Positions 17,553 to 29,045 of a DNA stretch of 36,462 bases are shown here, piece by piece (positions within the stretch are counted from its first letter, which is position 1; every line of letters begins with the position of its first letter). This DNA is from Patescibacteria group bacterium (GTDB taxonomy: Bacteria; Patescibacteriota; Patescibacteriia; SG8-24): NCBI GenBank assembly GCA_018813785.1, contig JAHJAU010000070.1, forward strand, positions 1 to 36,462, given 5' to 3'. The position numbers and the translations under genes were made by a program. The notes under the pieces were generated by a model. It saw only the letters and a list, made by a program, of their open reading frames with translations. It ran no database searches and was not told the origin of the DNA.

Positions 17553-18350
17553 ATGTATCATCCCAAACGAACGCTGACAAAGTTATTCTTGTCGGCTCTA
17601 CTTTTGACGGCAGCTTTTGCCGTCACGACATGCACTCACCCTCCAGGAGGCCGGATACCACGTTCACCAGAATGTGTTTACGTTCCGGATCCTCCCGAAA
17701 ATCCGCCCGAAGATCCGTTCGTTGCGGATCAGGATGACGATGGCCTGAATGAGCAACAACGCCTGGATTTTATTCGACGCGGTGTAGCCGCCACCATTCA
17801 AATTAGATCCCGGCGTTACTCAGCCAAGAATGGTTATTCCTTTCACAGTGGCTCCGGTGTTTTCATCGATGATTCACACGTGCTCACGGCTGAGCATGTC
17901 GTGCGCGATACTGTGGATCGCTATGCTATATTACGACGATTGGTCAGCGGCGGATTAAATATCGGTTATCTTCGCACAGAGCGCATCACGATCGTTGCGA
18001 CTAACGCAGAGCATGATGTGGCACTGCTCAGAGTTCACTCTCCGCCAGAAATGGCCTACCCACTTCCGACGGCCAGAAACTGGACACCGCAACATGATGA
18101 ATTACTCTGGCAATTCGGTGTCCGCACTGGTTGGTCTCGCGGCCGTGTAGTGCGACAAGTGCCAGATAATCTGCCGGTCAGCACTCATGGCTTGGTCGAG
18201 ATGAGAATACTTGGCCAGGCTGGTGATTCCGGCGGACCAGTATTGAATGTCCGCGGTGAAATCGTTGGCTTGGTGCTTCGGGGTAACACCGAAGCTGGAC
18301 GTCAATTCTTTGTACCGATCGATACGGCTCTGCAAGCAGTCGGCCGATAA
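17553..18350 (+). CDS. Trypsin-like (S1) serine protease, paralog of 16463..17293
   Basis: TAEHVV, DVALL and GDSGGPV; shares DP...DDG..E.R..FI and LLWQFG..T.WSRGRV with the upstream gene; AAGGAGG RBS; signal peptide. Confidence 0.88.
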   Translation: MYHPKRTLTKLFLSALLLTAAFAVTTCTHPPGGRIPRSPECVYVPDPPENPPEDPFVADQDDDGLNEQQRLDFIRRGVAATIQIRSRRYSAKNGYSFHSGSGVFIDDSHVLTAEHVVRDTVDRYAILRRLVSGGLNIGYLRTERITIVATNAEHDVALLRVHSPPEMAYPLPTARNWTPQHDELLWQFGVRTGWSRGRVVRQVPDNLPVSTHGLVEMRILGQAGDSGGPVLNVRGEIVGLVLRGNTEAGRQFFVPIDTALQAVGR

Positions 18351-18480
18351 TTAACAGCTCAAATACCCGCTTTTTAAAGCGGGTATTCTGTTATAAACTC
18401 GACTGACTGGTATTTAAAAAATATTTATATTACAAATAAGACTTGTTTGGCTCTTTTCAAAAGATCCGCTGGAGGTTGAC

Positions 18481-19254
18481 GTGGAAAAAATACAACGACC
18501 GATTGCAGCTTTTGATCTTGATGGCACAATATTTCGCGGTAGTCTATTGGATAAATTGACTGAACGACTGTGTCGCACTGGCTTCATACCGAACGTATTT
18601 GCCATGCATATGGTTCAGTTATTCATTCAGCAAAATGAACGACAAATTCCCTACCGCCTTTACGAGGAAAAACTGGTGCGCCTTTTGCTGGCAGCCCTGC
18701 GCGGCAAAAAACAAAGCGAACTAATCAAAATCGCTAATCTGGTTATGGCTGATGCTGCTGGCCAGACGTATTCTTTTACCACAACTCTACTGGCTCAACT
18801 TCGTCAAACCCATGACTGCATCGTAGTCACAGCCGGCATGTCTGAAACCGCTGATGATTTGGCGGAGTACTGGGGTTTTCAAACTTGCTTCTCAAGTGTT
18901 TTTGAAGTGAAGAACGGTCTTTATACCGGCGGAGTCGCTTCAACAGTGGCGCACGACAAAGGACAGACTCTCAAAACCAGACTGACCACTGCCAACCACA
19001 CTACGCTGACTGGTTCAATTGCGATCGGTGATTCGAGATCGGATATTCCGCTTCTTTCTGAAGTCGAACAGCCGATAGCTTTCAATCCGGATCACGAACT
19101 GATGAACCGAGCCGAGCGGGAACGTTGGCCGGTGGTGCTAGAGCAAAAAAATGTAATCTACGTTCTGCAATGTGGAGCCTGCACACAATTCTCTACTGAT
19201 GATGCCGTGAAGGCAGTGCGCTTGATTACCACCGAATGTCGTCAACTGCAATAA
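18481..19254 (+). CDS. HAD-superfamily IB (SerB-like) phosphatase
   Basis: Motif I FDLDGT, motif II VTAG, motif III K, motif IV GDSRSD, AFNPD; GGAGG RBS before GTG. Confidence 0.88.
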   Translation: MEKIQRPIAAFDLDGTIFRGSLLDKLTERLCRTGFIPNVFAMHMVQLFIQQNERQIPYRLYEEKLVRLLLAALRGKKQSELIKIANLVMADAAGQTYSFTTTLLAQLRQTHDCIVVTAGMSETADDLAEYWGFQTCFSSVFEVKNGLYTGGVASTVAHDKGQTLKTRLTTANHTTLTGSIAIGDSRSDIPLLSEVEQPIAFNPDHELMNRAERERWPVVLEQKNVIYVLQCGACTQFSTDDAVKAVRLITTECRQLQ

Positions 19255-19258
19255 AAAT

Positions 19259-19282
19259 AACGCCGAAGCTGTCGGCGTTTTT
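19259..19282. terminator. Terminator between convergent genes
   Basis: AACGCCGA-AGCTG-TCGGCGTT with a T-tract and an upstream A-tract. Confidence 0.65.
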
Positions 19283-19312
19283 ATTTGTGAATAATCACCG
19301 TAAATTAAAAGA

Positions 19313-19879
19313 TCAGTCAGTCTTGGCTGCCTCTTCGGATAAAGATTCCGAGGCGTAAACGAAACCATGCTTGGCCGCTTGCTCGCGACAGCTAAGATCG
19401 ACCTCAGCCAATCGCTCGTCGAAATTATCCGCTCCGCCGAATAGTTCGGAGTAGAAATAATCGAGCGCCACTTCTTCGAAAGGTCCCTGAGGATCGGTTC
19501 CAACTAATACGTACTTACCGTCCGGATCATGCTTGGCGGTCTGAATCGCCGCCTGAAATTGAGGCAGGCCAGCGAACCAATACAGATCAGCTGAGCTCAT
19601 ATTCACTCTGACCACCCAGCATTGCAAATCCATGCGGACGATCGTAATCGGATCAACCACTCCCAAAAGACGCTGTCCGGTTAGTGGGTCAACTAACTCG
19701 TGCCGCTCTTCAGCTTCCCCCACCTCTGGCAATCGAATCTCCGGCGGTGGAATATTCGGCGGTTCTATTCTCGGCACATTCAAATCCGTCCTCTGTCGCG
19801 GCTGATACTTGCGCCAGAAAAAATAGACACAACCGCCCAAAAGTAATCCACCGACTAAAACAAAGATAAACCAAAACAT
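19313..19879 (-). CDS. Hypothetical single-pass membrane protein
   Basis: Start MFWFIF with a GGAGG RBS; N-terminal TM helix, Pro-rich linker, acidic soluble domain. Confidence 0.7.
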   Translation of the reverse strand: MFWFIFVLVGGLLLGGCVYFFWRKYQPRQRTDLNVPRIEPPNIPPPEIRLPEVGEAEERHELVDPLTGQRLLGVVDPITIVRMDLQCWVVRVNMSSADLYWFAGLPQFQAAIQTAKHDPDGKYVLVGTDPQGPFEEVALDYFYSELFGGADNFDERLAEVDLSCREQAAKHGFVYASESLSEEAAKTD

Positions 19880-19942
19880 TAAAGAACCTCCACTAACTGA
19901 GATTACTGGCAAGATTAAGAATGGTCAATTATACAACCGCTA

Positions 19943-20066
19943 GTGACTGCAGAGTTTACCCTGTCGCTCGCGAGCGACAGGGTTTATCTCTGCCCAGCCG
20001 ATCTAATAACGATGGATGGAGGCAAGCCACGTCGCTCGCGAGTGGCGTGGCAAACTCCGCAGCTAC
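19943..20066. repeat. REPIN family B copy with a nested palindrome in each arm
   Basis: Arms match 17384-17452 but are interrupted by CCCTGTCGCTCGCGAGCGACAGGG (19959-19982) and GCCACGTCGCTCGCGAGTGGCGTGGC (20026-20051). Confidence 0.75.
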
Positions 20067-20078
20067 ATTGCCGCAGAG

Positions 20079-20795
20079 TTAAATTTCTCCTGACAAATAT
20101 TTTTTTCGTCGAGACTCCGGAAATTTTTCAATGGCGTAGCGTAGCATGGTGCGCGGCATTTTCTGATAACGAGACCGCAGAAACTTCTCTTCAACTGCCC
20201 GATTCCGATTGCCAATCTCACGCAACAACCAACCAACAGCTTTATGAATCAGATCATGCTGATCAGTAAGCAGTCTCTCCGCGATATCCAGTGCTTCATT
20301 GAACTGACCCTGTTTGATGAAGGCAAAAGTAGCCAACATGGCGATGCGTCGATGCCAAAGATTTTTGGATTTAACAAGTCGTCGCAAAATCGCGCGCGGA
20401 TCACGTCCGGTCAATCGAAACCACTCGCCATAAATACGATCGGCGGACAAATCAACCAGATCCCAGTTGTTGATGTGATCCAGTTTCTTACAATATAAAT
20501 TAAACAGAGATTGGCGACCCAACTCATCCGCTCGTTTAAATTGTTCAGTCATTATAATAAGCGCGAATAATCGCTCCTCATGCCACGGTGAATCGAGTAG
20601 TCGCGCACAATCATTAAGCGCCAGATCACGATAGCCGCGAGCAATGCGTCGCTGTTCAACTACAGTCACCCCAAGAAACTTATCGCCTGCCCCATATTCG
20701 CCCGGTGCGGTTTTAAAAAAACGTTGCAGTACCAGAGCCTGGTCCGCGTTAGCTACTGCCCGCAATTCCTTTTTTAACTGATTCAATTTGGTCAT
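20079..20795 (-). CDS. alkD: DNA alkylation repair protein (AlkD-like HEAT-repeat family)
   Basis: FFKTAPGEYGAGDKFLGV, HEER, INNWDLVD, LW.RR, DLIHKAVGWLLRE and MPRTMLRYAIEKF. Start at MTKLNQL. Confidence 0.88.
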   Translation of the reverse strand: MTKLNQLKKELRAVANADQALVLQRFFKTAPGEYGAGDKFLGVTVVEQRRIARGYRDLALNDCARLLDSPWHEERLFALIIMTEQFKRADELGRQSLFNLYCKKLDHINNWDLVDLSADRIYGEWFRLTGRDPRAILRRLVKSKNLWHRRIAMLATFAFIKQGQFNEALDIAERLLTDQHDLIHKAVGWLLREIGNRNRAVEEKFLRSRYQKMPRTMLRYAIEKFPESRRKKYLSGEI

Positions 20796-21142
20796 AAAAC
20801 TTGTCGTTACCGAGCTATGCCTTGTTTCGTGTTGGTTTTCAGCCGTTAAGCTAACCCGTTCGGGCTTCATCCCAATCCTAGTTACGTAGCAGATTTGGCA
20901 TGGTAGAGCCGTATTTTTGCGGTTCTCCTCCCCTGCATTTCGATTCGTGCGCCGCAAGTGGCAAAATCTTCATTCGCGATTAATATACGTCTGAATTATT
21001 GCTTCATAATTTACCCCCATGTTGAGCCAAAAAAATAGTTTGTTACCAACACGATTCAAGGCATAACTCTCATTACCCTGATAGTACACTGGGGGTCAAG
21101 GCTTTAATCTATAGTATAGGTTAAAGTTCTAACCACCTAATT

Positions 21143-21177
21143 AAAAAACCGGCCGCACCCCTGATGGATGCGACCGG
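21143..21177 (-). terminator. Terminator of the dikinase-phosphatase module
   Basis: Minus strand CCGGTCGCA...TGCGGCCGG followed by TTTTTT immediately after the metallophosphoesterase stop. Confidence 0.7.
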
Positions 21178-21185
21178 CAAAGAGA

Positions 21186-21926
21186 CTAGTAACCAATGAG
21201 CAGACGCTGCCCCAGTTCCGAGGGCAGTCCCAGCTCGGCAATCTGACGAACTACAGCTGCGACATCGTACTCAACGCGTGGCAGACTGAAACTCCAGTCG
21301 CTGGTGTCGAGCAGGCCGTAACAGGCTCGCGGGTCATCGTCGCGCGGCTGACCAACACTGCCGACGTTGATCAAGAACCGCTCATCGCCGGACAATACCA
21401 GTTCGGTCTGGTGATAGAACGAACCGCTCCGTTCACCGAAGACCTGGGGCTCATGCGTGTGTCCGACGAAGAACACTCTCAGGTCATCGTGCGGCAAACG
21501 TTTGAGCTCAATTCCCGCGCCGACCGAACCCTCGACGTAAAAAAACGTTGCCGGATGAGAAAACGATGCATGGGTGAAAGCCAGGCCATGATCCTCATCC
21601 CAGAGACAGTCGGGCAGACCGTCCAGATAGTCGAGCTGAGGCTGTTGCAACGCGAGAGCGGTGAACCGAACCGCTTCTTTGGCGATTTGGTTGAAGTTAC
21701 GAGCCCAGCGCTCTGAATCGAGCACCGCAGCCTCGTGGTTACCGAGCACTGTCTTGATCCGCTCGAGCTGGATCCGGATCACACACTCTCGCGGTTGCGG
21801 ACCGTACCCGACCACATCCCCCAGACAGACCATCTGATCCACGCCGCCACGCGCGCGGATATCAGACAGGACTGCCTGCAGTGCGACGTAGTTTCCATGA
21901 ACATCAGAAATAATCGCGAACCGCAT
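21186..21926 (-). CDS. Calcineurin-like metallophosphoesterase (YfcE/MJ0912-like)
   Basis: ISDVHGN, LGDVVGYG, GNHE, THAS, GHTH and NVGSVGQPRD motifs; AAGGAGG RBS. Confidence 0.92.
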   Translation of the reverse strand: MRFAIISDVHGNYVALQAVLSDIRARGGVDQMVCLGDVVGYGPQPRECVIRIQLERIKTVLGNHEAAVLDSERWARNFNQIAKEAVRFTALALQQPQLDYLDGLPDCLWDEDHGLAFTHASFSHPATFFYVEGSVGAGIELKRLPHDDLRVFFVGHTHEPQVFGERSGSFYHQTELVLSGDERFLINVGSVGQPRDDDPRACYGLLDTSDWSFSLPRVEYDVAAVVRQIAELGLPSELGQRLLIGY

Positions 21927-21968
21927 GGCAGTCCTCCTTTCCTTGCGTTGTTAGCGCCGTTTCGTTTA

Positions 21969-22463
21969 TCAGCGCAAATTCAGATATTGCGAGGGCACTT
22001 CCCGGCCTCGCAACGAGAAAATCCCTTCGGCCTGAGCCATGGTCTCGACAGCGTGGTGGCAATGCCGCTCACGCACCGCGGCGATCGGGTCAGGCGTTTC
22101 TTCCTCGGTCTCCAGGATGGCGATGAGTGACGCGAGCAGTGTACCGGTTCGCCCATGTCCGGCGGTGCAGAAGCACAGCACTCGCTCCCCGGTCTGGTGG
22201 CATCTCGCGAGCAGCGGGATTACCCGCCCGCACAAGAACTCCACCCAGTCGTCCGGCACACCGCCGAAGTCCGGCAATTGAGCGGATAGCACCAGGAAAA
22301 AGTTGCCGATGCCCAGTGGGGGCAATTGTTCGGTGAGCGGAATCAGCACATCGAACTCGGACAGGATGTCCGGGTCGAGGTGCATGGCTCCAGCGACATA
22401 GATCGTATAGGGGCCAACCTGGATCGGCTGGCCGGTGTGTGAATGAGCATCCTTCTGTCTCAT
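21969..22463 (-). CDS. Cys-based dual-specificity/tyrosine phosphatase (CX5R)
   Basis: PDFGG acid loop, FCTAGHGRTGT P-loop, VRERHC..AVET..Q; GGAGG RBS before ATG at 22463. Confidence 0.88.
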   Translation of the reverse strand: MRQKDAHSHTGQPIQVGPYTIYVAGAMHLDPDILSEFDVLIPLTEQLPPLGIGNFFLVLSAQLPDFGGVPDDWVEFLCGRVIPLLARCHQTGERVLCFCTAGHGRTGTLLASLIAILETEEETPDPIAAVRERHCHHAVETMAQAEGIFSLRGREVPSQYLNLR

Positions 22464-22602
22464 CTCGTCCTCCGCAGCTAATCCGTTACCCCTTGTAACA
22501 GATGAGCAGTGAGAGGGGGAAGCGCTGAAAAGATTCAACGCTTCCCCAGATGCCCCCGAGAGAAATCAGAGAGCGGTTGGGTGATCAGACCGAAACAAAG
22601 AT

Positions 22603-23013
22603 CTAGTAGGCCTCCTCCGCCTCGTCGTCGTCCGCCTCGTCCGCGGCCGACGACGAGCAGCACCCGGCCGCTGCCTGCTCGACGCGCTTCATGGCGGCCT
22701 TCACCACGACCACCTCTCCGCCGACCGCCTCGAGTGCGGCGCGCGCGATCCCGATCGCCTGGAGCAGCTCGCTGTCCGGGACCACGCACGAGAACCGGAA
22801 CTCCCCGTCGCTGGGCGTCTTCCAGCCGGCCGGGATGTGCGGCCGCATCATCTCGGCACCGATCATATCGGTCGGCTCCAGCCTGATCCGACTGGAGTCG
22901 CCACCGTCCAGGATACGCCGACTCAATCGGCCGGCCGCGTTCTCCGTCAGCAGCTGGTAGCTACCGGGGATCCCCTCGGTACCGGCGAACCGATACCTTC
23001 CGTTCTTTGCCAT
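22603..23013 (-). CDS. Hypothetical protein (136 aa) with an acidic C-terminal tail
   Basis: AAGGAGG RBS; GC-rich codon use; ends CCSSSAADEADDDEAEEAY; lies inside the module. Confidence 0.75.
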   Translation of the reverse strand: MAKNGRYRFAGTEGIPGSYQLLTENAAGRLSRRILDGGDSSRIRLEPTDMIGAEMMRPHIPAGWKTPSDGEFRFSCVVPDSELLQAIGIARAALEAVGGEVVVVKAAMKRVEQAAAGCCSSSAADEADDDEAEEAY

Positions 23014-23172
23014 GACTTCCTCCTTACCCGTCTCCTCCCCTTGAGAAGACGGCTAATAGAGGGAGAAGCGCCAAAAGGCGGGCGACGCTTCTCACTCAAG
23101 AAGATTTCCGAATCGCCAGACCAGGCGACCCAGAAAGAGCTTTATGATTTGAAAGAACTTGAGCAGGAGCCA

Positions 23173-25536
23173 CTACCACAGACCGCCGGCTTGTCCCTGA
23201 AGGTACAGCGTGGATATTTCCGGCGAAATGGTACCAGCCGCTTCGCCAGCAATAAATTTGTCGTACAACCCCCTGACGCCACCCTGGTGATCACGCTTGG
23301 TGTCCAATAGTTGATCCAGATGCCAAAGGTTTCCGACCAGAAAATCTTTGGTCTTGTTGAACATCCGACCACCGTTGTGTTGCAGATCGAAAGCGTGATC
23401 CACGAACACCGTGGCTGTAACCTTGCCTTCGAGCCACGACAGGGCGGCCGCGCAGATATCCGCCCACTTGATTCCACCAAACGACGTACTCCATTTCAAA
23501 TGGCGGAAGGCATTTTCTGCCCGCTGCAGAAAAATTATCTGTTGCTCGAGCGGCAGTAACTCCAATTGGTCAGCAACAGACCTCTGCGCTTCGATTCGAT
23601 CAACGCCTTCGTCAATCACCCCATACTTTTGTAGTTCAGCATGGACCAACTCTCGATCTAAGATCAGAGGGTTGCTATAGGCACTGCTTCGAACGTGACG
23701 CAACTCTCCGGCTGCTGCCAAGACGATATAAGTGGCCATCAACTCAGCGGCCTCCTGATGTTCTTGATGCTGGAGCTTTTGGACTGCTCTCGAAAGCTCG
23801 GCTGTGGCATTGAGACTACTACTGGCCGCAGCCATGGCTTCGATCAGGTAGAAGCTCCTCGCCAACTGCACCACGTTAATACTCTCGCCTCGTCGCTCGA
23901 GGGCGATTCGTGGGGCGTGAGCCCTTTTGTCAATCTCCGGCTGATGGATCCTCTTGTACCACCGCAGGAAAATTTTAATTTCTCTACGGTGGATGCCGAA
24001 CTCCATGGGCAGCTCACCCTGAAGCACCACACCACTCGTGCCGTCAACTGAAACCCACTGAAGGGGCGACAGCTTCAAGCATAAGTCCGCCTGAACACCC
24101 ACTACCGCCGGTTTGTTCAGACTCCGAGCCACCACCGCGGCATGCGATGTCGCGCCGCCGACTTCGGTGACGATAGCATCAGCCGCCAGCATCCCTGGTA
24201 GATCATTGGGTGAAGTCTCTGTCCGAAACAGCACCACCGAACAACCAGCTCCCTTCAATTGACGAGCTTGCTCCGAGGTAAGGGCCGGCCGGCCGGTCAC
24301 TGCTCCAGGCGAAGCCGGAATACCGCGAGCCAGAAAACGATTGGGGTCAGCCACAGCCTGAGCCAGCTCATTAGTCCGAAAGACTGACCGATCCAACTGT
24401 GCTAGCTGAGCTGTAGTCATCGCCCTTCGCTCAAGCGCTTGCTCCTTGGTGAAACGCTTTTCCCAAACCATCTGCACGGCATGAGAAACGGCCGCCACCG
24501 GGGTGCGCTTGGCCAGTCGAACCTGGAGAATGAACAGTCGGCCAGATTCGATCGTGAACTCTACATCCACGACGTCGTCAAAGTGCTGTTCGAGCAGTAT
24601 ACAGATCTGACTCAGCTCCTGATAAACCCCGGGATTCCAACTTTCGAGTTCAGCGATCGGTCGCGGTGTCTTAACACCAGCCACCACATCTTCGCCTTGA
24701 GCGTTTGGCAGCCACTCACCATAGAGCTCGCGCTCGCCGGTGGCGACATTGCGAGAAAAAACAACTCCAGTTCCGGAATCGTCTCCTCGATTACCGAACA
24801 CCATGGCTTGAATGTTAGCGGCGGTTCCGAGCCAACTGGGAATGTTGTTGGCTCGGCGATAAGCCCGGGCACGCTCTGACTCCCAACTGCGAAACACAGC
24901 ACGGCTGGCCATCGTTAACTGAGTCCAGACGTCGTCTTCCATGGAACCGGCGCGACGCTGAATCAGTTGCCGACAGTTGCGGCAGAACTTCTTCAGAGCT
25001 CTGACATGGAACGACTCACGATCGTGATCGCACCCGTTCTTCTGCCACAACTTATCAAACTCACTGGCTGCGATCCCATGAACCACGGTACCGTAACTGA
25101 CCAGAAATCGCCGATAGCAATCCCAAGCGAACCGTTCGTCTCCGGTTTCCCTGGCCAGCGCCAGAACTGTGTCCGGATTAAGTCCGAGATTCAGGATTGT
25201 ATCCATCATCCCGGGCATGGAGTGCTCGGCGCCGGACCTGACCGACACCAGCAGCGGCTTGACCAAATGACCAAAGCCACGACCAGTCGACTGCTCCAAT
25301 CCTTCCATTTCTCGAACGATCTGACCAAACTGCCGACGCGGCAGATGGCCATGCTGTAGTGACGACCGCCCCACGCTTGTGGTGACGGTGAAACCGGGCG
25401 GCATGGGTACACCAAGGTGCACCAGTTCCGCCAAGGAGAAACCCTTGCCGCCACGCTTGGCGGCTGACAGATGGGCGGAACTTTCGAATCCGCAAACCAC
25501 CTGACGATTCCGCCTGCGAGACGCTTTCTTTCCCAT
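23173..25536 (-). CDS. PPDK-derived dikinase: ATP-grasp domain + phospho-His swivel domain + unrecognised C-terminal domain (not canonical PpdK)
   Basis: GGKG, VSVRSGA..SMPGMMDTILNLG, QAMVFGN..SGTGV, AQGEDVVAG, DVEFTIE..L..LQ.R and GGATSHAAVVAR (His465). The PEP/pyruvate barrel motifs (MIE.PRA, SFGTNDLTQ) are absent. Confidence 0.9.
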   Translation of the reverse strand: MGKKASRRRNRQVVCGFESSAHLSAAKRGGKGFSLAELVHLGVPMPPGFTVTTSVGRSSLQHGHLPRRQFGQIVREMEGLEQSTGRGFGHLVKPLLVSVRSGAEHSMPGMMDTILNLGLNPDTVLALARETGDERFAWDCYRRFLVSYGTVVHGIAASEFDKLWQKNGCDHDRESFHVRALKKFCRNCRQLIQRRAGSMEDDVWTQLTMASRAVFRSWESERARAYRRANNIPSWLGTAANIQAMVFGNRGDDSGTGVVFSRNVATGERELYGEWLPNAQGEDVVAGVKTPRPIAELESWNPGVYQELSQICILLEQHFDDVVDVEFTIESGRLFILQVRLAKRTPVAAVSHAVQMVWEKRFTKEQALERRAMTTAQLAQLDRSVFRTNELAQAVADPNRFLARGIPASPGAVTGRPALTSEQARQLKGAGCSVVLFRTETSPNDLPGMLAADAIVTEVGGATSHAAVVARSLNKPAVVGVQADLCLKLSPLQWVSVDGTSGVVLQGELPMEFGIHRREIKIFLRWYKRIHQPEIDKRAHAPRIALERRGESINVVQLARSFYLIEAMAAASSSLNATAELSRAVQKLQHQEHQEAAELMATYIVLAAAGELRHVRSSAYSNPLILDRELVHAELQKYGVIDEGVDRIEAQRSVADQLELLPLEQQIIFLQRAENAFRHLKWSTSFGGIKWADICAAALSWLEGKVTATVFVDHAFDLQHNGGRMFNKTKDFLVGNLWHLDQLLDTKRDHQGGVRGLYDKFIAGEAAGTISPEISTLYLQGQAGGLW

Positions 25537-25696
25537 TTCCCTCTCCTGGGTTTGACCCGGTGCACCGGGCGACTTTGTTTTGTTGTTGATTGTAAATATC
25601 TAAAACGCCTTAAGGCGTTTGATTGGAATAGCCAAAAAGTTACAGCAATTTTCTGACTGACCCAACCAAGAGCCTAAGCCATTTTTAAAACTCTAA

Positions 25697-25725
25697 AATA
25701 TAGCAAATCTCTGCGTAATTGTCAA
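25697..25725 (-). promoter_or_regulatory. Sigma70-like promoter of the dikinase module
   Basis: Minus strand TTGACA-N17-TATATT with an extended -10 TG. Confidence 0.7.
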
Positions 25726-25740
25726 GATTATTAAACAAGT

Positions 25741-25769
25741 GACCCAGCTCCAATTTCTGGAGCTGGGCC
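25741..25769 (-). terminator. Strong hairpin closing the non-coding region (probable terminator)
   Basis: CCCAGCTCCA-GAAAT-TGGAGCTGGG followed on the minus strand by TCACTTGTTT, a weak U-tract. Confidence 0.55.
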
Positions 25770-25789
25770 GTAAGGTAACAAAAAAATTT

Positions 25790-27158
25790 TCTTAGTGGCC
25801 ATTTGTCATGCGCCCCCAAGGCCGTGCGGAGGCACTTCCGTTTTTCAGGTCAGCGCCATGACTGCGCTTTTTCGATCGAATGTAGTAGTTCGACATCGAA
25901 CGTCGATCTAGACCTGAAGCATCATCAGCCTGAACCAAGGCCGAGAATTGACATCCTCGTGGAAGTAGCGAGGCTGTCCAAGCGGCAAGAATCGCTTCCG
26001 TGGTGGTTTGGTGACCACCTTTTCCACTTTCCTATTTCTTGAAGGGCTTGTCGCAACGGGCTTTACCCATCGCCTAGGTTCATCCTTCAGCTAAAACCTG
26101 ACCAATCATAGACTCATCCACTCGTCTTGTATAACTTTTCAAAAGCGTTATACATCAGCGTGAATAAGCCAAGCACTCTTCTCCGCCCTTTATTAATTAT
26201 TTGCATTGAAAAGTGTTACTGATCAGGCCCTAACCCCGTCTGTCCGGGGTGCGGAGACGCCACTTCCGCTTCAGTTGTCCCATCAATCCAGTGATGGGCG
26301 TGAAATCGGTCGCTGGTAGAATGACAGACTCCAACCAACTCCACTGTTTCAGTGGCAGACACAGTACACCGCCATCAAACAGCTTCCCTCTTTTTAACGG
26401 TGCCTTCACCGAGGGAGATGAAAACACCGCATAAACTCACCTCACCAACGGTTTTATGAATTCCGCTGGCAAAATGATCGGACGGGGCCTATTCGGTCTC
26501 TATCATTCAGGCGATTTCCAACCGCCGGGTTGAAAAAACCTTTCGGGTACCCTTAGCCGCCAGGTGTCTAGCCGTCGGCTAACTCGATTCAGCTTTCAGT
26601 TGATGATTCAGTTCGGTTGCGAGCCGTACCAGATCGTCAATCTCGGTTCTTGATACCTGCCCGATTTAGGCATCAAGCAATAAACCGCAATGACCTCTGA
26701 ATCTTAAAGTCACCGTCTCTTTATCGACCCGCCGGTCGCGTAGGGAAAGAGACTACCCAGCTATTTGATGAAAGTTCTCTGATCGTCCTACCCAGGATGA
26801 TCCAACTCCCACCTTGATGGCCGATCCGGACACGCCGCTGCCCGACCTAATCACTCCTCGGTCTGCTTACCAAAAAGAAAATAGGTTTTAATTTGCTCGT
26901 TTACTCCTTGAGCTCAGTGTGCAGCGGGGATTTCACCCGCACTCCCTCCACGCCTGGTTTATAAAAATTTTTTACCAGGTTGAACGGATTCAGCTTTGGT
27001 CTGAACACACAAACGAGCGGACCTTTTTAAATAAGTGCTTAGAGCAGCGCACCTATCGAGCTGACTTTTTGTTAACGGGCTCCGTCAGCGATTGAGCCCT
27101 AGTAAACGCACATCCTAATCCTCCCTCTTTATCTGAACCTGCGACGACGTTGTCGCAG
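25790..27158 (-). ncRNA. Candidate cluster of large structured non-coding RNAs, family unknown
   Basis: No credible ORF in ~1.4 kb; many hairpins, mostly with G-U pairs and A-rich loops on the minus strand; end-to-end closing helices; AT-rich linkers; own promoter and terminal hairpin. Confidence 0.6.
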
Positions 27159-27164
27159 AGAAAA

Positions 27165-27193
27165 AAAATAACATAAAAAGTCGGATTAGTCAA
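27165..27193 (-). promoter_or_regulatory. Putative promoter of the non-coding region
   Basis: Minus strand TTGACT-N17-TATTTT with an extended TG; the predicted start near 27158 coincides with the first hairpin. Confidence 0.45.
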
Positions 27194-27208
27194 GATTGTG
27201 TTAGGTAC

Positions 27209-28321
27209 CCCCAATTCAATACATAACCGAACACTTCAGTGTAACATTGCCGATTAGGCATAACTGTAGTAATCATGTCAAAAAAGACGCATTTGAAGGA
27301 GTTCGAGAGGGAGAAGATCGAGTACTGGCTGAGGCTGGGGTTCGGCAACAACGAGATCGCCAGGAAGCTGGCTCGCAGCGGATCGTCAGTGTCCGACGAG
27401 ATCCGCCGCAACAGCAACCCAGACGGTAAGTATACGGCGGCGGATGCCCAGCGCCGAGCCGACCAGAGACGAGAGCGAAAGAAGGGTCGGAAGCTCGAAA
27501 GGGACGCCGTGCTACACGACTACGTAGTCTCCCTGCTCCGCGGCGACGGCATGCTACAGGGCTGGGCGCCGGACGCGATCGCCGGGCGGCTGAAGCACTA
27601 CCCAGAGCTGGTGCCGGAGGAGTTGCGGGGGAAGACCGTCTCGCACGAGGCGATATACCAGTACATATACGAAGGCGAGGGAAAGTGGGAGGCGCTGTAC
27701 CACCACCTGCCCAGGAAGCGCAGCCGCAGGAGGATCAAAGAGGGCAGGAAAACGCGTCAGCAGAGCAAAATACCGAACAGGGTGAGCATCCGGCTACGAC
27801 CGGCCGAAGTCAATGAGAGGAAGACGTTCGGCGACTGGGAAAGCGACACCTTCGAGGGTACGGGATCGGCGTGCGGATCTGTGCAGGTGGAGCGCAAGTC
27901 GAGGAAGATTCACCTGCACAGGACGGCGGACAAGACCAAGGAGGAGACCGAACGAGCCATCAGGCAGACCATCGAGTCATATCCGGAATACCTGCGGGGC
28001 GAGGCGTTCCGGACGATGACCCTCGACAACGGTGGCGAGGGCGCGAACCACGGGAAATTGAGGAGGGAATACGGCATCGACACCTACTTCTGCGACCCGT
28101 ACTGCTCGTGGCAGAAGGGCTCGGTGGAGAACGCCATCGGCCTCGTGCGGCTGAGGTTCATTCCAAAGAAAACAAATCTCTCGACCCTTTCGGATCGAGA
28201 GTTCATGCTCATGGAGGACTTCCTGAATGACATGCCCGGAAAGTCTCTCGGGCACCTTACGCCGAATGAGGTCGCGGCGCAATATTTGTGAGAGGTGTTC
28301 GGTTATTAGCTTGAATTTGGG
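27209..28321 (+). mobile_element. IS30-family insertion sequence
   Basis: Imperfect terminal inverted repeats CCCCAATTCAATACATAACCGAACAC and GTGTTCGGTTATTAGCTTGAATTTGGG around a transposase; GC-richer than the flanks; no clear target-site duplication. Confidence 0.88.
27275..28291 (+). CDS. IS30-family DDE transposase
   Basis: N-terminal HTH (IARKLARS.SSVSDEIRRN), VSHEAIYQYIY, FGDWESDT, TLDNG.E and YFCDPYCSWQKGSVEN. Confidence 0.93.
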   Translation: MSKKTHLKEFEREKIEYWLRLGFGNNEIARKLARSGSSVSDEIRRNSNPDGKYTAADAQRRADQRRERKKGRKLERDAVLHDYVVSLLRGDGMLQGWAPDAIAGRLKHYPELVPEELRGKTVSHEAIYQYIYEGEGKWEALYHHLPRKRSRRRIKEGRKTRQQSKIPNRVSIRLRPAEVNERKTFGDWESDTFEGTGSACGSVQVERKSRKIHLHRTADKTKEETERAIRQTIESYPEYLRGEAFRTMTLDNGGEGANHGKLRREYGIDTYFCDPYCSWQKGSVENAIGLVRLRFIPKKTNLSTLSDREFMLMEDFLNDMPGKSLGHLTPNEVAAQYL

Positions 28322-28457
28322 AATGTCAAAGGTAAGCTAAAAACTGACACCCCCCCAACCAGGATTTATATGTTATGGTATATGAGTTGACTTAAATAAA
28401 GACTCAAATCGTTGCTAACGATCGACGAGTCCGCTCTTTAAAAGATCGAGGTGTGTT

Positions 28458-28904
28458 TTGATTACAGAACTCAAAGAGTTGCTCGATGAGGTGGCGGCTA
28501 TTCCAGATGATCAAATTGAGGAGCCGAGCTTGAAGATTGCTCCAGAACATTTTGTGGTCGGTCGAATCGACGATCTAAAACTACGGCGCATTTTTACCGC
28601 CTATACACGTCGAGTTCGCGAACTGAGTCAATTGCATCAAGCGGTTCGTGGACCAATGTTAGTAGCGCGAAATATCCCTACTACAATCCAGACTAAAATG
28701 ATCGAATTACAGGACGAGCTGGATCTACTACGACAAATTTTTTTCTATGCTCTTAGCAAACGATTTGGTTTGTTCGGGCGACCGTTTATTCATGTTCACG
28801 TTGGCTGGCTGGTCAGTTGGTCGAATCGATCAACATCAACTCCGGCCTGCTCCGGTTCAGAAACGACGTTCGACAATGATAACAATGATCAAAACACCAA
28901 CTAA
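28458..28904 (+). CDS. Hypothetical protein, paralog 1 of 3
   Basis: GAGG RBS before TTG; shares ELK.LL.EV..IP, L+R+.TA, LL+.+FFY.L.KR and GW...W with the next gene; followed by a terminator (28917-28938). Confidence 0.75.
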   Translation: MITELKELLDEVAAIPDDQIEEPSLKIAPEHFVVGRIDDLKLRRIFTAYTRRVRELSQLHQAVRGPMLVARNIPTTIQTKMIELQDELDLLRQIFFYALSKRFGLFGRPFIHVHVGWLVSWSNRSTSTPACSGSETTFDNDNNDQNTN

Positions 28905-29045
28905 ATCTTAAAACTATCGGGTTTTGCCCGATTTTTTTATTGAGTTACAGCCAACACTAAAACTAAACCCCGAAGCCTTGAATGAATTGACGATGTTCAG
29001 CCGCCATGTTAAAAAGCGGAAGGTGAAGTAAGCATACTTTGCTAC

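Follow-up and report, generated by a model that had tools for sequence, protein, structure and literature searches.

A putative barrel-less, PPDK-type dikinase associated with a cysteine phosphatase and a small conserved protein in Patescibacteria

Results

Gene content and signals of the locus

We analyzed a 36,462-nt stretch of DNA from a Patescibacteria group bacterium (GenBank assembly GCA_018813785.1, contig JAHJAU010000070.1, positions 1 to 36,462), hereafter the window, and focused on four co-oriented open reading frames (ORFs) on its minus strand at 21186-25536. These encode a dikinase of the pyruvate, phosphate dikinase (PPDK) type, a 136-aa protein (p136), a CX5R cysteine phosphatase, and a calcineurin-like phosphoesterase. 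The genes and their signals are as follows.

25697..25725, minus strand: sigma-70-like promoter, TTGACA-N17-TATATT with a TG extension (11/12 matches)
25537..25696, minus strand: 5' leader (about 150 nt) that contains a small GC hairpin at 25556-25569, placed from the promoter and start codon positions
23173..25536, minus strand: dikinase, 787 aa, with a PPDK-type ATP-grasp, a phospho-His swivel, and a new C-terminal domain (Pfam, NCBIfam, full-length relatives)
24031..24237, minus strand: swivel (PEP-utilizers mobile) domain, aa 434-502, with the His465 codon at 24142-24144 (Pfam)
23176..23994, minus strand: C-terminal domain (C-domain), aa 515-787 (273 aa), all-alpha, 12 helices, presumed acceptor-binding (alignments, model)
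23105..23136, minus strand: hairpin without a T-run, within the 159-nt dikinase-p136 spacer
22603..23013, minus strand: p136, 136 aa, an alpha/beta domain of ~90 aa (aa ~6-94) plus an acidic tail (homologue alignment, model)
21969..22463, minus strand: CX5R cysteine phosphatase, P-loop CTAGHGRT, with a probable ATG start (open from TTG 22538; motif, homologues)
21186..21926, minus strand: calcineurin-like metallophosphoesterase (ApaH/PrpE-like), 246 aa, inside the island and the operon frame (Metallophos_2)
21148..21178, minus strand: intrinsic terminator, 13-bp stem with 9 GC pairs, then TTTTTT

A preliminary description of this DNA had placed four co-oriented genes between a promoter and a terminator, and we confirmed the positions, the promoter, and the terminator. 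Within 20500-27500, the promoter (25725..25697) was the top scorer among five promoter-like sites (3.6 ± 1.7 expected from shuffles), and the terminator (21178..21148) was the best of nine terminator-like sites (7.3 ± 2.8 in shuffles); overall, neither type of site was enriched over shuffled sequence in this interval.

A strong ribosome-binding site had also been described for each gene. Reading the sequence directly, we found a Shine-Dalgarno element, AGGAGAGGG, upstream of the dikinase ATG, and AAGGAGG upstream of both the p136 ATG and the phosphoesterase ATG; for the phosphatase, the start had to be moved to ATG 22463, which is preceded by GGAGGA. This start (164 aa) is more likely than TTG 22538, because GGAGGA lies 4 nt upstream of it and alignments with homologues begin only at residue ~18-34 of the longer version.

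The dikinase carries a new domain in place of the pyruvate-binding barrel

The ATP-grasp region of the dikinase matched PPDK_N (PF01326; E 1.7e-38, 133 bits, cut-off 27), and the swivel matched PEP-utilizers (PF00391; E 3.3e-22), with the catalytic His465 sitting in GGATSHAAVVAR, a T-S-H motif. The phosphoenolpyruvate (PEP)/pyruvate-binding TIM barrel (PEP-utilizers_C, PF02896) gave no match in the dikinase at E<=0.1. TIGR01828 aligned over model positions 3-557 of 865 (E 2.1e-157) and scored 525.6 bits, below its cut-off of 843. NCBIfam NF004531 (PRK05878), named 'pyruvate, phosphate dikinase', scored 476.7 bits, above its cut-off of 456. This 534-aa model spans just the ATP-grasp and swivel domains, and its passing score means that automatic annotation will label the protein PPDK.

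The AlphaFold model of the C-domain was all-alpha (pLDDT 90.5, pTM 0.87). No Pfam or NCBIfam family matched the domain. Searches with its fold against the PDB (Foldseek best E 0.4; VIA best Z 5.1 among 48,161 chains) gave nothing informative, BFVD yielded only four viral relatives, all without names, and the ESM Atlas fold search returned no usable match for either the C-domain or p136. An alignment profile of the domain, compared with PDB sequences, matched only the swivel residues present in some of its rows. The sole library family found was phrog_20946, of unknown function (E 6.9e-19).

In the alignment, G173, G174, W177, F197, D199, H206, and F212 (C-domain numbering) were invariant and Y89, E97, D203, K214, and K233 near-invariant, with R99 and N207 conserved in the closer set. 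This set of invariant residues, with acidic, basic, and His side chains, resembles a Mg/phosphate active site. Taken as a whole, the domain has a nearly neutral pI of 6.95.

A phmmer search of 1.84 billion representative sequences with the C-domain returned 1245 matches at E<=1e-3, 155 at <=1e-10, and 4 at <=1e-30. We examined 154 C-domain proteins: 115 were fused to a dikinase N-terminus, 36 carried a single copy alone (many of these being fragments or phage-type), and three were giant multi-copy proteins. The giants, P0010 (2263 aa), P0097 (1247 aa), and P0127 (1926 aa), contain two to three copies of the C-domain core and no dikinase, a second setting in which the domain occurs; apart from one Mind-bomb SH3 repeat in P0127, they are almost without recognizable domains, and P0010 and P0127 had no PDB relatives and almost no Pfam matches.

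The dikinase is thus a barrel-less PPDK-type enzyme that has lost the pyruvate site and has a conserved acceptor-type domain instead. This agrees with its earlier reading as a repurposed PPDK-type dikinase with a different third domain: PPDK_N and the swivel are present, and the barrel is replaced by the C-domain.

Three genes form the conserved core

We assembled 104 loci, comprising the window, two annotated phage regions, two IMG/VR contigs, four genome regions, 55 metagenome contigs, and 40 named genome contigs. Ninety-nine of them had an anchor gene; these formed 71 groups at 90% identity, 60 of which had at least 900 nt downstream. Partners were detected by frame-independent tblastn on the same strand within 3 kb.

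In the 60 non-redundant loci, the CX5R phosphatase was found in 43 and a p136-like domain in 40; 33 loci had both, 50 had at least one of the two, and 10 had neither. In five of these 10 (L021, L022, L071, L118, L119), the anchor had no N-terminal dikinase match. Counting ORFs gave lower bounds of at least 31 for the phosphatase, 22 for p136, 11 for both, 42 for either, 18 for neither, and 1 for the phosphoesterase, as the ORF caller was crude and mis-framed GC-rich p136 genes (shown for L080). The preliminary description had staked its interpretation on the co-occurrence of dikinase and phosphatases, and the direct, co-oriented association is indeed recurrent for the CX5R phosphatase and the small protein.

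The calcineurin-like phosphoesterase was present in 1 of the 60 loci, the window itself, and was missing even from the same-genus and same-family copies. Because of this, the core unit consists of three genes rather than the four originally proposed: the dikinase with its C-domain, the CX5R phosphatase, and p136, with the phosphoesterase as a local add-on. The pairing of two unrelated phosphatases is likewise local to the window; where two phosphatases recur elsewhere, in phages and in loci L053, L054, and L112, they are paralogues of the protein tyrosine phosphatase (PTP) type.

The window has a C-domain dikinase followed on the same strand by the phosphatase and p136, the arrangement found in 33 of the 60 loci. 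Among all 99 anchored loci, redundant ones included, the dikinase was followed by the phosphatase and then p136 in 40, the phosphatase only in 19, p136 only in 14, two phosphatases in four, p136 and then the phosphatase in two, the phosphatase and two p136 genes in one, and none of them in 19. The two loci with p136 ahead of the phosphatase are the window and a same-family genome, and a same-genus copy fetched later has the same order; the order dikinase, p136, phosphatase is thus shared only with two copies from the same bacterial family. In L033 and L040, the phosphatase and p136 form one polypeptide.

The remaining 149 neighbor proteins (65 groups) contained no Pfam family more than three times, with tRNA synthetases and RecR at the top. 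The neighbors are heterogeneous, and the cassette is therefore autonomous.

The partner proteins

No Pfam family matched p136. Its core has nine invariant residues (G11, T12, R33, R42, R44, P47, W64, R73, and S75) and the motifs MAGTEGTG, RxRxEP, WKQPG, and RFS. In the model, a three-stranded sheet is followed by a helix, a further strand, and a second helix (core pLDDT >90); the conserved N-terminal G-T segment is modeled as flexible (residues 1-14, pLDDT <50). Fold searches gave a best E of 0.075 in the PDB and a best VIA Z of 5.7 to ACT domains, within noise. With no Pfam family and only these weak ACT-like folds, p136 gave no indication of being an HPr-type phosphocarrier. A complex prediction for the C-domain with p136 (score 0.00, mark 0.32) was not used as evidence either way.

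As had been noted, the window p136 is acidic (pI 4.7), with nine Asp/Glu residues among the last 36. The tails vary: that of L019 is rich in Lys, Ala, and Pro, and several Obscuribacterales tails contain repeated 'L-R-x-x-K-x-x-G-x-N-S-R-W-x-x-x-T-L-R' units. By eye, the tails gave us the impression of nucleic-acid-tethering segments (SAP/HeH-like or H1-like); a Pfam comparison found no SAP, HeH, or H1 family in them. A homologue search for p136 found one relative in the near-length range and none among proteins of 673-2000 aa; fusions of the PTP-p136 size fall outside these size ranges. Within 401 genomes sampled from the phylum, p136 occurred in two, both dikinase carriers.

The phosphatase has its P-loop Cys and Arg at positions 124 and 130 (189-aa numbering), and the loop C-x-[AG]-[GS]-x-G-R-T is kept in nearly all of the cassette phosphatase genes listed. 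Pfam matches to PTP and dual-specificity phosphatase (DSP) families were all below the gathering cut-off (best, PTP-SAK, 23.8 bits vs 27). Its nearest solved relatives are small protein phosphatases, namely DUSP23 (E 3.8e-5) and archaeal PTPs; its 'LPDF' aligns with the 'IPDF' of DUSP23, and the Asp of this motif is the putative general acid, which in this superfamily lies ~30 residues ahead of the loop.

The phosphoesterase matched Metallophos_2 (PF12850; 63.7 bits, cut-off 27) and PDB entry 3rqz (E 9.6e-42) and carries the motifs ISDVHGN, LGDVVGYG, and GNHE. It scored below the ApaH equivalog cut-off (42.4 vs 176).

Distribution and a split form in phages

The large collections were searched with a narrower C-domain alignment, as the first one was too loose; a single-protein scan of genome contigs gave no match. 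On named genome contigs, the C-domain was found mostly in Patescibacteria of many classes and in Candidatus Obscuribacterales, some with two copies, and also in a few Proteobacteria metagenome-assembled genomes (MAGs), one Binatia MAG, and one Woesearchaeota MAG. It was present in three of 41 close relatives, and a strong match was found in five of the 401 genomes sampled from the phylum (G000 included in both counts). It was absent from 72,556 plasmid records.

We built a quick maximum-likelihood tree from 38 full-length fused proteins (those of the named genome loci, two IMG/VR loci, G334, and the window), leaving out split phage proteins, metagenome loci, and proteins <650 aa. The window grouped with the same-family genome copy (SH-aLRT 98), and the Patescibacterial classes were scattered around a mainly Obscuribacterales clade. 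By these sequence comparisons, the distribution is patchy, non-syntenic, and fast-diverging.

Occurrence in the candidate phyla radiation (CPR) and in phages had been guessed beforehand, and both were borne out, the phages having a split form. A tblastn search with the C-domain matched 31 phage records (29 Vibrio, one Stenotrophomonas, and one uncultured); p136 was absent from all 50,697 phage records. In Vibrio phage MT735630, the gene order is dCTP deaminase, PPDK-like protein (685 aa), small protein, PTP, C-domain protein (326 aa), PTP, 'transporter', and DNA polymerase I; in Stenotrophomonas phage MZ326862, these parts again lie ahead of the DNA polymerase. As in the window, the TIM barrel is missing from the phage PPDK-like proteins. 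The split module, found in Vibrio siphophages of ~80 kb and in Stenotrophomonas Delepquintavirus (DLP3/DLP5), therefore shares with the window a barrel-less PPDK-like protein, the C-domain (phrog_20946), and CX5R phosphatases, adjacent and co-oriented. It differs in encoding the dikinase and the C-domain separately, in having two PTP paralogues while lacking p136, and in its position, flanked by dCTP deaminase/ligase genes on one side and DNA polymerase genes on the other.

One small protein of MT735630 (L005 4750-5223), encoded after the PPDK-like gene and before the first PTP, gave a borderline CsrA-family match (27.7 bits, cut-off 27); if this match is true, it would be an RNA-binding protein within the phage module. 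In MZ326862 (L006 6942-7724), the second PTP paralogue is called 'thymidylate synthase' in the DLP5/DLP3 tables, and phrog_17568, likewise named thymidylate synthase, matches the window phosphatase (E 5.6e-11). The name looks like a propagated mis-annotation, because the C-x-G-G-H-G-R-T phosphatase loop is present.

The paper on DLP3, a related phage, lists the same genes and reports that DLP3 DNA was refractory to 15/15 restriction enzymes tested, its modification being undetermined there (PMC7326821). In the Vibrio phage papers, the gene is labeled a glycolytic auxiliary gene (PMC9229204, PMC10671443), and the virome literature counts viral 'ppdK' as a carbon-fixation or glycolytic auxiliary metabolic gene (PMC12615777, PMC9229204, PMC10671443).

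The cassette lies in an inserted island

The island and the features upstream of the four genes are as follows.

20958..28457, no strand assigned: inserted island of ~7.5 kb, with the four genes, a 1.4-kb ORF-free region, and an IS30-family element (comparison with same-genus genome G401)
25741-27165, minus strand: ORF-free stretch of 1.4 kb, with a promoter-like site at 27193..27165 and a terminator-like hairpin at 25769..25741
27223-28306: IS30-family element, with an HTH_38 + rve transposase and 28-nt imperfect inverted repeats, bounding the island

The whole window is collinear with contig C10 of G401, in which the homologues of 20079-20957 (a DNA-alkylation-repair gene) and of the ORF at 28458-28904 are ~217 nt apart; 20958-28457 has no counterpart at this syntenic site. 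G401 carries its own cassette on another contig, with a dikinase identity of 46% vs 74% for the flanking CNNM transporter.

The source genome (1.19 Mb, 84 contigs) has a mean GC content of 45.6%, vs 56-69% for the four genes. The preliminary description had judged the module to be GC-richer than its flanks; it proved to be the highest-GC of 870 sliding 4.5-kb windows of the genome (57.2%; mean 45.5%, sd 2.7). The island insertion, the GC outlier, the adjacent IS30, and the divergent same-genus copy on another contig together indicate that the cassette is mobile and horizontally acquired.

A second copy of the left flank and end of the IS30 element (52 nt, 27209-27260) is present on genome contig C54 at 94% identity. 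Contigs from an RNA library (run X1, see below) had loose ends at 27101 and 27209 and left 27542-28275 uncovered. The population may be heterogeneous for the IS30 insertion.

A second GC-rich stretch lies at 1-2518 of the window (61-64% GC), with minus-strand ORFs at 182-1483 and 1505-2518; these had no Pfam families and have homologues of 35-39% identity at the syntenic place in the same-genus genome. A weakly GH42-like neighboring gene (G334) was considered as a link of the cassette to glycans and rejected, since it keeps its place 5 kb from the island in the window and also where the cassette is on another contig.

Expression and the ORF-free region

In groundwater metatranscriptome run X1, 58% of the module's sampled words were present, and assembled contigs covered 25 of the 30 bins of 18000-29000. 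One contig (22146-22973) bridged p136 and the phosphatase, and others lay on the dikinase. Two further RNA runs, X2 and X3, contributed no contig to the region. These contigs, from a single metatranscriptome, give a weak indication that the cassette genes are co-expressed. Depth peaked at 14-24 on ORF-free 26074-27174 vs 1-10 on the genes.

In the stretch 25741-27165, no minus-strand ORF exceeds 65 aa and no plus-strand ORF exceeds 79 aa. A 671-nt piece of it had a folding z of -3.55, and none of 20 shuffles was as stable. No Rfam family matched 25400-27400 at E<=1 or any part of the window at gathering cut-offs, no tRNA was found in the window, and DNA comparison with 40 relatives gave no match to the stretch. 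Upstream of the dikinase, the same-genus and same-family cassettes have ORF-poor regions of 1.4-1.76 kb, which share short collinear patches (39 nt at 82%; 92 nt at 74%). The next ORF of 150 aa or more was at least 1 kb away in 16 of 43 loci, vs 23 of 243 background gaps. In this bacterial family, 25741-27165 is a candidate for a large structured RNA tied to the cassette. A cassette-wide non-coding RNA was considered and found unsupported, since the ORF-poor upstream regions of 17 loci share almost no primary sequence (three short blastn matches, no tblastx match).

Discussion

A proposed phosphoryl-transfer unit with an acceptor other than pyruvate

On balance, the evidence leans slightly towards the cassette being a self-contained mobile unit that transfers a phosphoryl group to some acceptor that is not pyruvate. 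If the enzyme works like PPDK, PEP synthase, rifampin phosphotransferase, and glucan-water dikinase (GWD), the beta-phosphate of ATP would be loaded on His465, and the swivel would carry it to the C-domain, where it would be placed on a hydroxyl (or phosphate) of the bound acceptor, with release of AMP plus Pi or PPi. The downstream CX5R phosphatase would then remove the phosphate from the dikinase product, as a reset or a second step. The Arg/Trp-rich p136 might serve as an accessory binding module, probably targeting the enzymes to an anionic polymer, and the calcineurin-like phosphoesterase might be a second, locally recruited eraser.

Our preferred guess for the acceptor, a tentative one that is somewhat unlikely to be right, is a nucleic acid or nucleotide hydroxyl. 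We prefer it because of the replication and nucleotide-metabolism context in phages and the refractory DNA of DLP3, and because of the Arg/Trp core and charged tails of p136 and the ApaH-like extra phosphoesterase in the window. In addition, the patchy, non-syntenic, and fast-diverging distribution points away from core metabolism and towards a putative role in phage-host or inter-bacterial conflict. A more specific version, which we regard as rather unlikely, is a polynucleotide-directed dikinase/phosphatase that would phosphorylate DNA or RNA hydroxyls (ends, sugars, or a hydroxymethylated base), either as a step of phage DNA hypermodification or as a reversible conflict 'mark', with the phosphatase and p136 as a DarTG-like eraser or antidote; the ~1.4-kb RNA could take part.

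Several observations weigh against the main explanation. The preference for nucleic acids comes from context, with no recognized nucleic-acid-binding domain: the p136 tails had no Pfam match, and the pI of the C-domain (6.95) is close to neutral. Small protein phosphatases (DUSP23) are the closest solved relatives of the phosphatase, and this fits a protein target equally well. Neither partner is obligatory, because 10 of the 60 loci lack both and the cultured phages lack p136. A search with the PADLOC-DB 2.0 defence models found no family for the four proteins at E<=0.1, the cassette neighbors are mostly housekeeping genes rather than defence islands, and the DLP3 DNA modification is not known to be tied to these genes. 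As for expression, the X1 contigs left the phosphoesterase gene almost uncovered (no cover in bin 21303-21669); they come from one study, cannot demonstrate a single transcript, and could include DNA carry-over.

Other explanations

A protein phosphorelay, in which the dikinase would phosphorylate p136 on Thr12, the near-invariant Tyr19, or Ser75, the phosphatase would reset it, and phosphorylated p136 would be the output (cf. Enzyme I-HPr), seems improbable. It would account for a small conserved partner found only where the dikinase is, for the invariant G11-T12 in a flexible segment (pLDDT <50) ahead of a well-folded core, for a phosphatase closest to protein phosphatases (DUSP23, archaeal PTPs), and for the fusion of enzyme and putative substrate in L033 and L040. 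However, p136 is missing from 20 of the 60 loci and from all phage records searched, where the dikinase, C-domain, and phosphatase persist, and the conserved Asp/Glu/His/Lys/Arg set of the C-domain resembles a small-ligand or metal site, not a docking surface. The chemistry argues against it as well: the enzymes known from this dikinase class phosphorylate hydroxyls of small molecules or polymers, and transfer of the PEP-dependent phosphotransferase system (PTS) type goes to His.

We give a similarly low probability to a small-molecule phosphotransferase, whose C-domain would bind a metabolite, antibiotic, or cofactor that is inactivated (cf. rifampin phosphotransferase, RPH) or activated (cf. 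PigC/RedH), with the phosphatase and p136 as pathway or immunity partners. The exchangeable substrate domain follows the logic of RPH and PigC, both weak swivel-domain matches, the conserved residues of the C-domain form a pocket-like set, and the cassette is mobile in the manner of resistance genes. Against this, a kinase and a dedicated phosphatase in one operon would make a futile cycle unless regulated, there are no biosynthetic neighbors, and lytic phages keep the genes in replication modules.

Reversible phosphorylation of a glycan (storage glucan or envelope polysaccharide) appears less probable still. Here the cassette would be an analogue of GWD with SEX4/LSF2, and p136 would act as a carbohydrate-binding module. 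GWD and PWD are His-swivel dikinases that write phosphomonoesters on polymer hydroxyls, and CX5R phosphatases (SEX4/LSF2), some fused to a binding module, erase them. The same pairing of a His-swivel dikinase with a CX5R DSP-type phosphatase is seen in the cassette; two phosphatases recur in phages and in L053, L054, and L112, the fusion of a phosphatase with a binding-type domain has parallels in SEX4 and laforin, and phages often remodel host polysaccharides. On the other hand, neither a glycoside hydrolase nor a carbohydrate-binding module is detectably linked (in Pfam scans, the four proteins and the p136 homologues matched no carbohydrate-binding family), the domain order is that of PPDK rather than GWD, and the phage copies lie within replication modules, not lysis or tail modules. 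The likeness is therefore one of working principle only; the substrate-binding parts are not homologous, and the window is not a member of this system.

Finally, an ordinary PPDK or PEP synthase of central carbon metabolism (an 'auxiliary metabolic gene') is hardly credible: NF004531 passes its cut-off, the N-terminal 515 aa are clearly PPDK-like, and the phage papers use the PPDK label, but the TIM barrel holding the pyruvate catalytic site is absent in both window and phage proteins, NF004531 covers just the two N-terminal domains, and the gene is tied to the phosphatase and/or p136 (either in 50 of the 60 loci), not to glycolytic genes.

Relation to known systems

With PPDK and PEP synthase, the window dikinase shares the ATP-grasp, the swivelling phospho-His domain, and the G-G-x-T-S-H-A-A motif; those enzymes have a TIM barrel, whereas the window protein has a 273-aa all-alpha domain plus phosphatase and p136 partners. 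The short 'PPDK' of NF004531 has the same ATP-grasp and swivel coverage, and the window protein runs ~270 aa further, into the C-domain. Rifampin phosphotransferase and PigC/RedH combine an ATP-grasp and a swivel His with an exchangeable acceptor domain in the same way (weak swivel matches), but the acceptor domains of these enzymes are of unrelated types, and no dedicated phosphatase partner is known for them. Compared with PTS Enzyme I-HPr, the window has neither the PEP-binding barrel nor an HPr-type partner.

Among systems acting on nucleic acids, DarT-DarG is a mobile writer/eraser pair whose eraser (DarG) is fused to a second domain, and T4 Pnkp and bacterial Pnkp/Hen1 combine kinase and phosphatase activities, including calcineurin-type phosphoesterases, on nucleic-acid ends. 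These are analogies only, with no sequence relationship to the cassette.

The literature searches found no function assigned to the barrel-less form, the C-domain, or p136, and returned only genome announcements and virome papers using the PPDK label; the preliminary description, likewise, had not recognized this as a described system.

Significance

Judged from sequence and domain content, the cassette represents a new, widespread variant of His-swivel dikinases, with an acceptor domain that matches no known fold and with a pair of dedicated partners, of which one is itself a new domain. It belongs to a large uncharacterized branch of the PEP-utilizing dikinases (1245 representatives at E<=1e-3). 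For this barrel-less family, domain content argues against the 'pyruvate phosphate dikinase' auxiliary-gene label used by annotation pipelines and in phage and virome papers. Its presence in cultured, genetically tractable phages makes the function directly testable. If the acceptor is DNA, RNA, or a nucleotide, the cassette would represent new chemistry for phage nucleic-acid modification or bacterial conflict systems.

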